64,000 bases of DNA, from NCBI GenBank assembly GCA_965112155.1, contig OZ218100.1; one strand, 5' to 3'. The stretch's first letter is position 1, and every line of letters begins with the position of its first letter. The translations under genes were made by a program, and so were the position numbers. The notes beneath the pieces were generated by a model. That model was not told the origin of the DNA and did not search any database. It saw nothing but the letters and a program-made list of their open reading frames with translations. Below are positions 22,168 to 46,642 of the stretch, one piece after another. This DNA is from Podarcis liolepis (lineage: Eukaryota).

Positions 22168-22299
22168 CTAGCTCTCTTTGGATGTTGTCAGGGACTCCTG
22201 TAATAGTCTTTCTCCTTTTCACTTTCTTCGGCCGCCTTACCACAGTATCTGTGTAAATTAGAGACCTCCGTATGCTGGCTTGGCGGTCAAAATTCTCCC
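22168..22299 (-). CDS. NHSL1: NHSL1 coding exon (132 nt, symmetric phase 1-1, skippable): GENFDRQASIRRSLIYTDTVVRRPKKVKRRKTITGVPDNIQREL
   Basis: catCAG acceptor; TAG|GTATGG donor; NHS-family motif FDRQASxRRSL..RRKTIxG. Confidence 0.95.
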
Positions 22300-27711: not shown

Positions 27712-27904
27712 CAGTTACGTTAATAGGTATAACATCAGTTTGGACTGCTTGAGCCTGTTGTCGCATTTTCTCCTCCGGGGTTGGCAATGGAAGTGATTTG
27801 GTCCAATTTGTTTGAGTGTTGATATCAGAGAATTCATTTGAAACTGGTGTTTTGGGTCTCTTGATGCTAATGAGCTTCTCCTCCTCAGGAGAAGGGGTCG
27901 AACA
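27712..27904 (-). CDS. NHSL1: NHSL1 coding exon (193 nt, phase 0 to 1): CSTPSPEEEKLISIKRPKTP...NWTKSLPLPTPEEKMRQQAQAVQTDVIPINVT
   Basis: aatAG acceptor; CTG|GTAGGC donor; NHS motif SLPLPTPEEKMRQQA. Confidence 0.96.
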
Positions 27905-28280: not shown

Positions 28281-29266
28281 CTAATTATTAAACTTGTACA
28301 TAACTCTTTTTCTCATTGGAAAAAAGGGACATTATGCAGAACCATATACTAAATTTACGTATAAAACATAGGAATTAATACTGGTCTGTTAATGATATAC
28401 CAAGAACTCTACTATTTTCAGTAGGAGTTTTAACAGTGCTATAAAATACAGTGCTTCTAGTTGCCCAAACTCTTTAAAAATATGCTCTAGGGCTACTTTG
28501 ATGGGATTTTTAAAAATCCCAAATATGAAAGAATGGATTTACAAATCTTGTAAAACATTTACAACTGAAATGTCAGAAGAGATTCTTCAATGCAATGACC
28601 AAATCTTAGGGGAAATGGCCCCTCTTTTGGTATCCCTGACCTTAGTATTAGGATAAGAAACCTTCTGTGCCATCTTCTTCCTTTGTACAAAGGGGAAATT
28701 TGCAAGTGTGACTCCACCAAATCAGTTTTTAAAAGGTCTGAGTCACAAAGATAGAAATGCAAACCAAAATGATATGCAAGGGTTCATTAGTGTGTGACTT
28801 TTGTTTATCTTACTATTACACATGAAAAAAAGCTTGCTCTCTAGGCTCAGGTGCCAAGGGAGTAATACTTCCAAGCATGGTGCTGTGTGATAAGCCCCAG
28901 TAACCTACTTTTTATCTGGTTGGTTGACATTGTCAAAATGAATAACTGTCATGTTATGTTGACCCAGTGCATTGTATTTGGAAACCCAGCTGCCATTAGC
29001 CAGTCACCAGGGGCTCTTCAAACATGACAAGAGACAGAGACATAAATGTATACTATATAACTTTCCTTCTTTTTCAAGGAAACTGCAAATAAAGCATATT
29101 TTAAAAGCAATTGTGAGGCATGAAGCAAAACAAATCACACACATAGGCAGACAGGTAAATTTATGTCTGAATCCTTGTTATACAAAACAAACAAAATTCA
29201 CAATTTTGACACATGGGAAAATAAATCAGCTGATCCGATGGCCAATAAATAATAGACCATTTATAT

Positions 29267-29401
29267 CAGGCATAGGCAAACTCGGCCCTCCAGACTTTTG
29301 GGACTTCAACTCCCATCATCCGTAGCTAACAGGACCAGTGGTCTGGGGTGATGGAAGTTGTAGTCCCAAAACATCTGGAGGGCCGAGTTCGCCTATGCCT
29401 G
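29267..29401. mobile_element. Palindromic hAT MITE
   Basis: TIR CAGGCATAGGCAAACTCGGCCCTCCAGA ... TCTGGAGGGCCGAGTTCGCCTATGCCTG; 8-bp TSD ATTTATAT/ATTTAAAT (7 of 8 match). Confidence 0.9.
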
Positions 29402-29517
29402 ATTTAAATAGTCAGATCAGCTACTCTGACAAAACACTGTCCAAATGTTGTTCAAGTTTTAGTGCATACAAACATTTTGATACAATCCAAGCAGCAATTG
29501 TTTCCTTCTCTTGTGTA

Positions 29518-29644
29518 CAGCTGGGTGCTCTCCAGATGTTTTGGTCTAGAACTCCCACCAGCCCCAGCCAAATGGCTGTGCTGACTGGGGCTAATGTGAG
29601 TTGTAGGCCAAAACATCTGGAGGGCACCAGGTTGGCAAAGCCTG
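29518..29644. mobile_element. Older palindromic hAT-type MITE related to 29267-29401
   Basis: CTCCAGATGTTTTGG ... CCAAAACATCTGGAG inverted arms; similar degenerate copy at about 62906-63024. Confidence 0.7.
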
Positions 29645-29907
29645 CTTTAATGCATTAAAAAATCCTCCAGGTCCTGGGATCGCTTGGTTACTCACACCTG
29701 GCCCTATTCTCAGCCCTGATGGAAAACAACCTTTCAAAAGTATCTCAGCCAAGGGTGAAATTAATTACAGAATCATAAAATTGTAGGTGTTTGTGGTTGG
29801 GGCAGCTGAGGTAGGGCTTTGACACGATCTACCAGTCAACATCCTGAAAACATCAGCTCTGGAATTTCTAAGACCTATGCATGTCTGAAAGGTGTGCATG
29901 TGCAATA

Positions 29908-30148
29908 TAGTTGTACCTTGGTTCTCGAACATAAACCGTTCCGGAAGGCCGTTCAACTTCCGAAAGTGTTTGAAAACCAAGGTGCAGCTTCCGATTGGCT
30001 GCAGGAGCTTTCAGCACTCAAGCGGAAGCCGCGTCGGACGTTCGACTTCCAAAAAATGTTCGGAAACCGGAACACTTACTTCCGGGTTTTTGCATTCGGG
30101 AGCCAAAACGTACTAGTACCAAGGCGCTCGAGAACCAAGGTACGACTG
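29908..30148. mobile_element. Tc1/mariner (Tigger-like) MITE
   Basis: TIR TAGTTGTACCTTGGTTCTCGA ... TCGAGAACCAAGGTACGACTG; TA on both flanks; CpG-rich interior. Confidence 0.88.
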
Positions 30149-31995
30149 TACTAACTTCCTGCAATGGATGCATCCCACCATGCGGCCCCCCACCCTGCCA
30201 CAGTCCCTAGTTTTGCCCCAGAGAGTTCCTGTGTTCTGGCTGCATTCCCCAACAAACAGCTGGGAATGAAGACTCCACGCTTTGAATATTGTTATAGGTC
30301 TTTGGGTATCAGAGTTTTTGGGTGCTTGGATTTATATCAAAATAGCCAGGTGAGACTGTGAATGGCCTAGCCATTAAGCAAGCAAAAACAGAACGATGGC
30401 TCATCAAGAAAGTCATGGAGAGGGGTGAACCCCCCACTCTGGGCTCTGGGTAGTTAACAAAAGACAATGCCAGAGTGGTGAGGAGGAAGTTTCAGAACTG
30501 CAGTGAGAGGTTATGTAAGCTGAAGGGGAAATAGTTGCATTTAGAAAGCAGTTTCAAAGCTGGAAAGTGTGGGTTAGAGCAGAATGGGGTGGGCAGTTTG
30601 AATCCAACGTTACACCCATGGGAGGAAAAGGACCCGCTTTGGAATGTAATCCTGGGAGTTCCTCCATTGTAGGTTCATGTTGTAAATGAACCATATATCA
30701 TAAAGACACCACAGTCTCCGCTGTAACCCCTGGAATCTTGCACTGCTGTGAAGACTGGGGTGGTGTGTAACAATATGTTCTTAAATGACTATTTCAAAGG
30801 CAGGCACAAGTCCCAAAGGAAATAACAACTCTTCAGAATAAGCAGCAACCTGAATTCATTGCTCCAACAAAGCCTATAATAAAGAAACCAAATAGTATGC
30901 AGATTTGTGGTGGTTTAAAACTCAGTCCAAAGATTAGTGTTAGAAGAAAAGGAATGAGAATGAATAGGAAGCGAAATTAATATTATTCTTATGTATTACA
31001 AAGAGTAGCACAGTTTGGTTTTCATGCTTAATTGTATTACTAAATATTATTTTTCCCAATGTTATACTGAGATGGTTGGATTGCTCAATAAATATAATAG
31101 CAGTTATTAAATGTTTCAGATTTCATTTCAGTAAACTGATCTTTTAAGATTGTCATCTGAGATTTCTGGATTTCTACATGATCTCTGAATAGAACACGGT
31201 GGAACAAAAACATTATTTGTTTACAGTAGAGGAAAGCATATAGTAAGGATTGAAAAAGGAATGTTCAGAAATGAGATTAGTGGCATTTTGGTTGCTGAAG
31301 CCAGTAAACAGGGATTATCATCCTCTTCCCACTCATCAAATGATAAATCTCATTATCAGAGTGGGGATAACTTGCATCCACATCTAGACCCTGGATGCCA
31401 TTCATCCAAATGCTGTGTTTACTTTTTAAAAAAGTTTACATTTGCAACCATTGCAAAAGTTGATGGAGTCTTGAGGGGCAGACAAAAATGGGGGAGGGGG
31501 CTGGATTAGGCCCTTGAACTGGAAGGTAGCCACCCCTGTCGTATAACATGTGAGTTAAGAGGAACCTAATAGACACTCACATTCACTCTCGGATTCAATG
31601 CTAATATGTTTTGTTTTCCATTTCATATATAAATCAATATATAGTTTGTTTGATTTGGAATAAATTATTGTAAAACAGCACAACAATCCAAATTACAAGA
31701 ACATTTATAACAGTTTATAAAGTTAGTAACTATTCCCAGATATAGAAAACATTAACAAAGTATGAGCAGTAAAAAAGGAGTTAGTCCATTAAATATACAA
31801 ACTGAGGGTTCTAGATTGACAACTACTGAGATAAGGATAGAAGCACACAATGTTAGTACAAGATTTACCTTGAAAAAGTGAAACCAACAATAGGTGAAAA
31901 TTTAAAAGTGAGATTTGAGAATATTCTAGCATCACAATAACATCAAGCTGTATATATACATAACAGCTGGATGATCCCATTTTGGAGCCAGATAC

Positions 31996-32067
31996 CTTGA
32001 TCTTCCATGGAATCAAACAACAGCAGGCACTAAGGCAAGACTGAGGGAGGCAGTCTAACAGACTAGA
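31996..32067 (-). CDS. NHSL1: Candidate NHSL1 alternative cassette exon (72 nt, phase 0-0): SSLLDCLPQSCLSACCCLIPWKIK
   Basis: About 90-nt U/CU-rich tract plus caaCAG acceptor; AAG|GTATCT donor; length divisible by 3; no stop; phase matches the flanking exons (...EQK | CST...). Confidence 0.7.
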
Positions 32068-32307
32068 CTGTTGAGTGAGAGAAAAAAGAAAGCGAATGAG
32101 TGGCAAAGAAAAGAGAAAAAACACACACATAAAAAGACACAACAGACACAGTAAACGTAGCAACATGATAAACATAATTTCAGAAAGCAGAGAGGAGTTG
32201 CTATCTGAAGACATCAATTTTCCATGCAAGGAAAACATGCTTAAGTGATGAAGAGAAAGAGAGAAAATATCATACTAGTTTGTCGTGTTTTAATCAAAGG
32301 GTTTTAA

Positions 32308-32308
32308 T

Positions 32309-32341
<33 letters not shown>

Positions 32342-32349: not shown

Positions 32350-33768
32350 ACCAGCCAATTCAGTGGACTCACAAAAGGGAAATATGCTTCAGTACAGGGT
32401 GTCAGAAATGCTGCCATGAATTAGGGCCATTTATCACATTAAAAAGATGGCTCCACCCCAAACTGTCCCCACAGAAGTATCTGAGGGCAGTATGAACCAA
32501 ATTACAGGAATATGCATGAAGTCGATCATATTAACCATCTGATCTGATTTCCAGAAAAATTCTAGGGTCCTAAGTAGATGTATTTCATACCATCTGCATC
32601 CTGATCTGGACTTGCAAAGGGACTGCACATTAGACTTTTACATCAAATGCTCATTTTCCCCTTCCTTTGAAGTTCTGGGGCAACAAGAACCCTGAAAGAC
32701 CCCCTTCTGGGACCATCTCAAGAAGGAGCCACAGAGAAGGAAGGAACCTCCCCTCTCCAACCCTTGAGGCTAACACTTCTCTTTTGAACAAATATTCTCA
32801 GATACCAAGTTACTTCTCTGCAAAACCTCCCTCAGCTTCAGGCTTCCCACCTTCTCCACAATATTAGTTCTAGAGGGACCATAACAACAGCCTCACCCAA
32901 CAGTACATCTCACTGTGTCTTTCACTGAGGACTGATATCCACCAGTACATACCATATCAAAATAAAGAAAAGTGGAATATCACTCTAAGATAATTTTTAT
33001 GGGAAGGTAGTTTTCAAGGAAAATGCCATTTTGCTTATAATATTAGGTAGTATTTCACTATAAATTAGCCCTCAGCAGTTCTATAATCTCCTCATAATGC
33101 CACTTATTGAGTCAATTTTAATATTTCACTGATTGTGCAAATAACACCTATATAATAATTTCTCCTACACAGGAACAAAATTGCAGGACTATTAAGAAAT
33201 ACTGACTTGCTGAGGACATTGCACTATATTTTCTGTTATAAATACTAAAAAATTCATAGTCCAAAAACTAGCTAAGATAATTTTTTTGGATTTAAACCAA
33301 CACAGTTCTAAATACATTTACTTGAAAGTAAATAATACCATCTCAAGATCTTCATGCATGAATCCCACCCTCTCCAGGTGGGATATTGAAGTGCACACAC
33401 TCATGGTTGAAGACCAACAGGGAAGGAGTGGAGTGAGGAGGCTATTGGAAAATGCATCACATCTGTGTTTATTTTTTAAGTATCATTATTCAGCCTTTAA
33501 CTTCAAGATTAAATGAGCTAGAAGGGCGCAAACAACAACAACTTCCCATCCGAACAGTGCTGTCTTTACTGTTCAAGGATTTCAGTATCTTTGCAATAAC
33601 CCTTTAAGGTAGGTAGGTAGGTAAGTATGTGTGTTATCATACACACATGTATGAGAACAGGGCCAGTGGTTGAGCACATACATATGCTATGAGTTCATGG
33701 CTGATCCTGAGAAAGGAAAGAAGATGGTGGATAAAGAGCTGATAGCTATGAAACACAGTGCACATAAC

Positions 33769-33916
33769 CAGTGGCGTAGCGTGTGTTGTCAGCACCCGGG
33801 GCAAGGCAAGTAATTTGCACCCCCTAACCCGGTAGGGGCAGAGAGCTGCGAGTGCCCCCCCAGATGTTGCTCCCGGTTCAGCCAGCCCCCCCTGCACCCC
33901 CCATGCTACGCCACTG
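33769..33916. mobile_element. hAT-superfamily MITE (GC-rich)
   Basis: TIR CAGTGGCGTAGC ... GCTACGCCACTG; perfect 8-bp TSD CACATAAC at 33761-33768 and 33917-33924. Confidence 0.92.
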
Positions 33917-34636
33917 CACATAACAGATTCCTGCACAAGGGGCAAGTATTACTCAAGTGGATACTATACAGAAATCACAATGAAGAAACAAATGCACAAT
34001 TAGAACAGAGGGAAGGATTCAGCTACTGAGTTCTGTCAGGGGACGCTCACACAAGGACTTCCACCTGCACACTCTGGTTTTCCTCCCTCTCAGGTCCCTG
34101 AAATTGGTGCAGGGGCAGGAGAACCCCCAGGATAACGCATGGGGCAAGGAGAGAGAGTGGGGAACAGTCCATCAGGCAAGCTGCAATGCTTGCACCGACA
34201 AAACATCTGACATAGTGCAACGTTTATTTCCTTCCAGAGAACCGAACTGCACTAAGTCCACTTTATACACATCAAGCTTGCTTGAAATAAAATGTAAGGT
34301 GAACTCTGAACACTTTAAAAAACAAAAAAACAAAGCTAGTGTTCACAAAGGGATAATGGCTTTATTTTCTATTTGCTCATGAAAGCAGCAAGCACTGATA
34401 TAACCGGTTTCAAAATCTGTACTTCTGCCTGCCAGAGATGTTTGCATTGCAATTTTCTTCTTTGAGTTGAACCACACTATAGGTGGTGTTTTTAAAAACA
34501 GCATAGCTTTAAAGGCCCATATTTTTCTAAATATTTTGCACAGTTCTATTTTGCACTTCTATAGTTTTATGTTGATTTAATTTTGGCTTATATGTGCATT
34601 ATACTACATTACTTCCTAGGGCGCTTGGTACCTCAC

Positions 34637-34764
34637 CTTTTGTTCAATTTCTTCATAGTCATCGTGGTGACTTCCGCAGATTGCACTGGAAGAAGATGAG
34701 AAAGTTGGGCCCTGAGAATAGTATTGAGAACTTCGATAGCCATCCCTTCGCAGCTTGTCACATT
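34637..34764 (-). CDS. NHSL1: NHSL1 coding exon (128 nt, phase 1 to 0): (E)CDKLRRDGYRSSQYYSQGPTFSSSSSAICGSHHDDYEEIEQK
   Basis: taCAG acceptor; AAG|GTGAGG donor; matches the recalled NHSL1 sequence ECDKLRxDGYRSSQYYSQGPTF. Confidence 0.96.
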
Positions 34765-46489: not shown

Positions 46490-46642
46490 CTCTTAGTACC
46501 GACTTCAGGTTCAGCTTGGCTTGGCGGTGCAGATCCTCTACACAGGGTGGCCTTGAGGTGGGTAGAAACACATTCTCTTGTTGATGCCAGGGTGCAGTGT
46601 AATGGACTGTCCATCTGCTCTCTTCATCTAGATTGGAGACAG
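46490..46642 (-). CDS. NHSL1: NHSL1 shared coding exon 2 (153 nt, phase 1-1), C-terminal half of the WAVE-homology domain: VSNLDEESRWTVHYTAPWHQQENVFLPTSRPPCVEDLHRQAKLNLKSVLR
   Basis: tttaCAG acceptor; GAG|GTAGGA donor; near-identical to the recalled vertebrate NHSL1 sequence. Confidence 0.97.

Follow-up and report, generated by a model that had tools for sequence, protein, structure and literature searches.

A conserved, cysteine-rich cassette exon of NHSL1: a candidate splice-switched S-acylation site with a probable counterpart in exon 3a of NHS

Our analysis establishes that a 72-nt segment within intron 3 of NHSL1 in the lizard Podarcis liolepis is a real, frame-preserving and alternatively spliced exon. 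It lies in a window of 64,000 nt (contig OZ218100.1), by which we mean the whole stretch of DNA that was analysed. The explanation that we favour, and for which we consider the chances to be about even, is that this optional exon, present from fish to birds and likely to be shared with NHS in the form of its exon 3a, carries conserved cysteines that are likely to be S-acylated, so that the protein would gain a reversible lipid anchor when the exon is included.

Results

The cassette exon within NHSL1

NHSL1 proteins of lizards, birds and turtle, when used as tblastn queries, place the cassette between exons 3 and 4 of NHSL1, further coding exons of which also lie in the window (Table 1). An earlier note on this DNA had described the segment as a stop-free, AG/GT-bounded stretch in a phase-0 intron of the minus strand, and both the sequence and the exon boundaries bear this out: the segment (32067–31996) is preceded by ...CTCAACAG and followed by GTATCT, and its translation, SSLLDCLPQSCLSACCCLIPWKIK, contains no stop. 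Exon 3 ends in ...EIEQK/GTGAGG and the first codon of exon 4 is TGT at 27904; the intron is consequently in phase 0, and the segment has both the canonical splice sites and the preservation of frame that define a cassette exon. Among 222 candidate segments of the 6.7-kb intron (in-frame, stop-free AG..GT segments of 30–237 nt) it alone passed both splice-site thresholds, crude as these are, and the AG-free zone upstream of it extends over 131 nt, compared with 51 nt for exon 3 and 16 nt for exon 4. The sixth cysteine named in the earlier note belongs to constitutive exon 4 and is present without the cassette. An (AAC)n microsatellite (window 32309–32340) is located approximately 240 nt upstream of the cassette acceptor.

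Table 1. Positions in the window of the NHSL1 exons and of the elements around the cassette
Feature	Position	Strand	Remarks
NHSL1 cassette exon	31996..32067	-	72 nt, phase 0, between exon 3 and exon 4; encodes SSLLDCLPQSCLSACCCLIPWKIK
Cassette 3' splice site: CAG, pyrimidine tract and AG-exclusion zone of 131 nt, with UCUU/CUCU and UGUG runs	32068..32200	-	
UGCAUG, single copy	about 161 nt upstream of cassette exon	-	
Cassette 5' splice site, AAG/GTATCT	31990..31995	-	
Three ACUAAC, QKI-type	31722..31857	-	+139, +211 and +269 downstream of cassette
Exon 3, upstream constitutive, 128 nt, ending ...EIEQK	34637..34764	-	
Exon 4, downstream constitutive, 193 nt, beginning CSTPSP	27712..27904	-	
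Exon 2, 153 nt	46490..46642	-	
Exon 5, 132 nt, second cassette	22168..22299	-	length and position those of the mouse exon repressed by QKI

Included and skipped forms of the transcript

The exon is not hidden, contrary to the earlier note's own heading, although the same note was right that predicted database isoforms might contain it: when the peptide was searched together with its flanking residues, three proteins out of four candidates were recovered, all of them predicted RefSeq isoforms, from Varanus komodoensis (24/24 cassette residues identical to the window) and two Anolis species (23/24). RefSeq X-isoforms generally rest on RNA-seq. The exon is included in eight and skipped in six of the 14 proteins of the Varanus cluster, included in five and skipped in five of the 10 of Anolis carolinensis, and included in nine and skipped in six of the 15 listed for A. 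sagrei; one bird cluster of 13 has eight included and five skipped, and include/skip pairs of NHSL1 also occur in coho salmon and smelt. Both forms of the transcript are thus present, as annotated pairs in lizards, birds and fish and, for skipping, as read directly in RNA.

The RNA sample consisted of four of 24 listed runs, all from one organism, with no stated tissue and with intronic contigs that differ by a few percent from the window. Of the junctions by which the exon was to be checked, that for skipping (34637–27904) was found in 4/4 runs (4 and 2 raw reads; contig depths of 130 and 40), but none for inclusion was among the joints listed for these runs at a threshold of three reads or a contig. 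The two raw runs have zero sense-oriented depth in the bin that contains the cassette, and one contig spans the cassette unspliced at a depth of 4.6. When the two raw runs are pooled (six skip reads, no inclusion reads), inclusion is estimated by hand at less than about 25 %. Since only skip reads and none for inclusion were recovered, the cassette appears to be mostly skipped in the sampled RNA. Elsewhere in intron 3, 29064–30283 and 33700–33943 show very high depth on both strands and many loose ends in 4/4 runs; these are interspersed repeats, not NHSL1 exons. In runs X1 and X5 the contigs lack a 156-nt stretch (33759–33914), for which 10 letters fit either side; it is likely to be a repeat insertion in the window that the organism of the RNA runs lacks.

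Conservation in sauropsids

In a second protein search, the best 120 of 1120 matches (116 bird, one turtle and three lizard) all carried the insert, which reflects a query selected for the insert and is not a frequency. Cys6, Cys11, Cys15 and Cys16 are invariant in 146/146 sauropsid inserts, a set that amounts to 41 distinct 24-mers and is non-independent, many rows being isoforms of one species; Trp21 is kept in 144/146 and Lys24 in 145/146, the third adjacent cysteine of CCC in 22/146 and Lys22 in 35/146. Considering these frequencies, we take the core of the cassette to be L-L-D-C-x4-C-x3-C-C-x-L-x-P-W-x-x-K and CCC to be essentially a lizard feature. The cysteine cluster that had first drawn attention to the segment therefore holds in four positions but not in the third residue of its triplet, and the W-K-I-K ending holds in its tryptophan and final lysine but not in its first lysine.

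The cassette is 67–75 % identical between Varanus and birds or turtle, and the flanking exons 83–90 %. Two basic residues are found near the cysteines in lizards and fish, and usually Lys24 alone in birds. The cassette is missing from the annotation of a gecko (one protein), an amphisbaenian (8/8) and a caecilian (5/5).

Teleost inserts and exon 3a of NHS

A deeper, filter-free search (50 %-identity representatives, best 150 of 421 matches) revealed inserts at the same junction in NHSL1-like proteins of eel, smelt, coho and sockeye salmon and killifish and in four more proteins. The teleost matches at this junction have E values of 1e-7 to 6e-5 in a small set. The fish copies keep Cys11, and Cys15 in all but one of nine; Cys6 or Cys16 is replaced by Phe, Tyr, Trp or Leu, and several copies have basic residues on both sides. 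The adjacent cysteine pair, present in 146/146 sauropsid inserts and in every NHS insert seen, is missing from most teleost copies. In a divergent teleost-like NHSL1 group (P0219, P0267, P0284, P0304 and P0257) a QSCF-x-x-C core is kept (QTCF in one), the other cysteines have become aromatic or aliphatic residues, and the flanks are basic.

A 21-residue insert stands at the equivalent junction of NHS in alligator, rattlesnake, poison frog and two sharks; frog and shark have it both included and skipped (pairs P0319/P0318 and P0320/P0324). These inserts end in CC-x3-PW-x-[RK]-K and align on Cys15, Cys16, Trp21 and Lys24 of the cassette. When 18 NHSL1 and NHS inserts were aligned together with their flanking sequence, Lys24 proved invariant, and Cys15 and Trp21 were kept in >=90 %. 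The cassette profile scores the NHS inserts weakly (2.6–7.4 bits, E 0.1–3), among the next matches after fish NHSL1 and at the correct position; the case for homology is carried by position, length and optional status. Human NHS exon 3a is described as 63 nt long, giving forms of 1651 and 1630 residues (PMC2876887, PMC13578402), and the published human R248/P264 numbering, when placed on alligator NHS, puts the insert at about 285–305; by length, position and this numbering the 21-residue insert is most likely human exon 3a. Considering that the NHS insert shares both the junction and the CC-x3-PW-x-x-K end, the cassette likely predates the NHS/NHSL1 split.

The likeness is therefore that of an optional insert at an equivalent junction with Cys15, Cys16, Trp21 and Lys24 in common. 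Exon 3a differs, however, in its length (21 against 24 residues), in having two cysteines where the cassette has four or five, and in an N-terminal half that is Ser/Pro-rich, whereas that of the cassette is Leu/Cys-rich; it is also reported to be present in the human cell lines studied, whereas the lizard cassette is skipped in the sampled RNA.

NHSL1 of placental mammals

A search scored on exon 3 alone, and hence blind to the insert, gave 118 placental-type and two squamate proteins among its best 120 of 776 matches. With cluster members the placental-type set comprises 222 proteins; in seven of them the sequence begins only downstream of the site, and a further three carry unrelated inserts or are aberrant models. 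None of the 222 matches the cassette profile, which suggests that the cassette was lost from placental NHSL1, as far as annotation tells, in which the gecko, amphisbaenian and caecilian lack it too, and among proteins that include no named marsupial or monotreme. Of the groups in which the earlier note proposed to look for the exon, birds, turtle and fish carry it, but these placental proteins do not. The human NHSL1-A1 and -F1 constructs likewise lack the cassette exon.

In two human NHSL1 proteins (P0366 and P0368), exon 2 and the 128-nt exon are separated by an insert of 18 residues that was not seen in the other proteins compared. This insert is most likely the 'exon 3' of the 2025 NHSL1 isoform nomenclature, as far as the available text of that preprint goes (bioRxiv 10.1101/2025.03.13.643034). 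Being located upstream of the 128-nt exon, it was rejected as an equivalent of the lizard cassette. The human cassettes described there as 'exons 3 and 6' are likewise internal, and the 132-nt one is common to lizard, whereas human 'exon 3' most likely differs from the lizard cassette (bioRxiv 10.1101/2025.03.13.643034).

Elements that may control inclusion

Within 300 nt downstream of the cassette there are three ACTAAC motifs where 0.12 would be expected from 15 sites in 37.5 kb (Poisson P 3e-4, in one of 20 motif-by-side tests), and no second place in the NHSL1 gene has three per 300 nt; a UAAY half-site lies near one of the three. Downstream ACUAA is described as a mark of QKI-activated exons, and Nhsl1 is listed as a QKI target in the same study, the relevant tables of which concern the 132-nt exon 5, repressed by QKI and included at approximately 0.13 in wild-type mouse and 0.69 in the QKI knock-out (PMC5548867). 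The QKI-regulated mouse exon was accordingly rejected as the cassette, its identity being that of exon 5. We regard control of the cassette by QKI as a lead whose chances fall somewhat short of even. Exon 5 itself (22299–22168, minus strand) is skipped in some lizard isoforms; one TGCATG lies upstream of it, as does the nearest ACTAAY, at a distance of about 485 nt.

Physical properties of the insert

On a helical wheel of 12 NHSL1 inserts, Cys11 and Cys15, wherever present, lie at most about 75 degrees from the hydrophobic face, and Cys6 and Cys16 are directed away from it. Amphipathicity of the insert is weak and non-significant (shuffle P 0.06–0.6), and NHS inserts have none; mean hydrophobicity is 0.55–1.0 for the NHSL1 insert and 0.35–0.46 for that of NHS. 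In an AlphaFold2 model of a smelt protein (18 sequences, mean pLDDT 49.7) the insert is a low-confidence coil, and the ESM Atlas returned nothing for the cassette peptide.

Further upstream in the gene, an alternative first coding exon (window 50410–50353, minus strand) encodes MVVFINTKLKSLIKFFKKK and is followed by GTAAGT, a type known in birds, lizards and mammals. Its peptide is Lys-rich and hydrophobic, with a helical moment of 0.44 (shuffle P 0.12), and might represent a second optional element for membrane binding.

Discussion

We suggest that most tissues may skip the cassette and that a restricted cell type may include it, likely aided by QKI at the three downstream ACUAAC motifs. In the inclusion form, Cys11 and Cys15 would share one helical face of a hydrophobic stretch that rests on the membrane, where a zDHHC enzyme would acylate it, and acylation would lengthen the stay of NHSL1, or of a WAVE-shell complex built with NHSL1, on the plasma membrane or on vesicles. 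Such anchoring would supplement Rac- and Abi-dependent recruitment and not substitute for it. This reading, which the earlier note also proposed, draws on the invariant sauropsid cysteines among hydrophobic residues, the conserved terminal lysine, the replacements and basic flanks in fish, the placing of Cys11 and Cys15 on the hydrophobic face and the precedents of SEPT8 and STREX. Against it stand the non-significant helical moment, the orientation of Cys6 and Cys16, the lack of amphipathicity in NHS inserts, the low-confidence coil of the AlphaFold2 model, the single basic residue usual in birds, the want of an inclusion junction among those listed for the four RNA runs, the identity of the mouse QKI target as exon 5, and the finding that human NHSL1, which is without the cassette, is already found at lamellipodia and vesicles (PMC8478917). 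In placental mammals the exon is likely gone from NHSL1, and a shorter version with two cysteines would be retained in NHS. The cassette may sit at the place of the basic lipid-binding region of WAVE; alignments to WAVE1 end at residue 90–95.

The main rival to S-acylation is that the segment forms a docking surface, its hydrophobic residues and unmodified cysteines packing on the WAVE-shell complex (CYFIP/NCKAP1) or on another partner, in which case splicing would alter complex stability or the choice of partner and not lipid anchoring. We hold this to be unlikely, though it is a serious contender. In the AlphaFold3 model of an NHS WAVE-shell complex, as presented in the accessible part of PMC13578402, NHS 254–406 lies at the interface with high confidence, and the insert, at about 285–305 by human numbering on alligator NHS, falls inside this region; the same source gives a shorter modelled interface for human NHSL1, which is without the cassette. 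The invariant Trp and Lys and the Cys-to-Phe swaps would suit a binding motif equally well. Against this, four invariant cysteines in 11 residues exceed, in our estimation, what packing alone usually keeps, and the cassette is also present in isoforms without the WAVE homology domain. Acylation and docking are not mutually exclusive.

It is less probable, and we think rather improbable, that the cysteines are acylated but that the exon mainly sets stability, trafficking or the phosphorylation of the adjoining Ser/Pro-rich stretch, leaving location visibly unchanged. That NHS constructs with exon 3a reach the cell edge only with both termini, and that NHS inserts are Ser/Pro-rich and non-amphipathic, would accord with such a role; against it, hydrophobicity is far higher in the NHSL1 insert than in the NHS one. 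The most telling evidence against the lipid anchor that we favour comes from NHS: the truncations R901X and T1357fs, whose parent cDNA includes exon 3a, are reported to stay within the cytoplasm of MDCK cells (PMC2571945), and the short NHS isoform, in which the first exon alone is different, is given as cytosolic (PMC13578402), so that the NHS motif is at most a contributor to anchoring. The NHSL1 form, with its four or five cysteines and higher hydrophobicity, may be stronger.

Metal binding, or a redox or disulfide switch, by C-x4-C-x3-CC would explain why four cysteines are invariant in sauropsids. We nevertheless judge it improbable, given that Cys6 or Cys16 is replaced in fish and that NHS has only two cysteines; a zinc-binding module with four invariant ligands and a folded core is thus not what we find, fish and NHS having lost ligands, the peptide having no Pfam match and the low-confidence AlphaFold2 model showing no folded module. 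The replacements by Phe, Tyr or Leu in fish, together with basic flanks, appear to be more in keeping with a stretch that faces a membrane than with a metal site. That the segment is a pseudo-exon or an annotation artefact, as the unlisted inclusion junction in the four RNA runs and the many apparently homology-projected bird models might be taken to indicate, is hardly credible in view of the identity between lizard and bird or turtle proteins, the teleost matches at the same junction and the include/skip pairs in several lineages.

That splicing can switch palmitoylation is an established principle, which would make its operation in the NHSL1 cassette less surprising. In SEPT8, adjacent cysteines and nearby basic residues encoded by exon 10b are described as a palmitoylated, filopodia-inducing motif, and splicing decides whether the protein is palmitoylated (PMC6092797). 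Exon 10b and the cassette are alike in that an alternative exon puts adjacent cysteines on a soluble cytoskeletal protein, with nearby basic residues that in the cassette number two in lizards and usually one in birds; they are unrelated in sequence, however, and exon 10b is reported as an alternative last exon controlled by NOVA, with acylation detected by acyl-RAC, whereas the cassette is internal and its acylation is predicted. The STREX insert of the BK channel is, like the cassette, an internal, alternatively spliced insert, and is described as bearing palmitoylation sites (PMC2963414), but its host is an integral membrane channel and no homology is claimed.

Neither NHS, NHSL1 nor the motif was found in the searchable parts of four palmitoylomes (PMC5498535, PMC12874130, PMC11471619 and PMC13386470), and the main text of a fifth (PMC6266727) does not mention NHS or NHSL1. 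Our literature search, which covered titles and abstract openings and few subscription journals, found no paper on the cassette or on palmitoylation in the NHS family, and the accessible parts of the NHS-family papers hold no relevant passage on cysteine or palmitoyl. On this basis, neither the relation of the cassette to NHS exon 3a nor its apparent loss in placentals seems to have been reported. Exon 3a has been known for years, and the available text of the papers that describe it gives no function for it (PMC2876887, PMC13578402, PMC2571945).

Taking these points together, we put forward, tentatively and as rather doubtful in its entirety, a broader proposal: that the NHS family has carried a splice-switched S-acylation anchor directly behind the WAVE homology region from a time earlier than the split of NHS and NHSL1 in jawed vertebrates, that in cells rich in QKI this anchor would tie an otherwise soluble WAVE-shell complex to lipid, and that it was lost from placental NHSL1, exon 3a of NHS being its surviving form.

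Finally, the cassette touches on the question of how WAVE-shell complexes, in which NHS or NHSL1 replaces WAVE, are placed on the membrane, NHSL1 being a regulator of actin-driven cell movement and NHS a cataract gene. Considering that the published NHS constructs are described as including exon 3a and that the human NHSL1 constructs are without the cassette, the differences reported between the paralogues may partly reflect the insert. A CC-x3-PW-x-x-K end kept from shark to rattlesnake, together with a Cys-rich form in NHSL1, allows a cheap and direct test in a human disease gene. If the anchor is indeed ancestral and exon 3a its survivor after loss from placental NHSL1, the place where the Nance-Horan protein works would be set partly by the two cysteines of exon 3a, a determinant so far overlooked.
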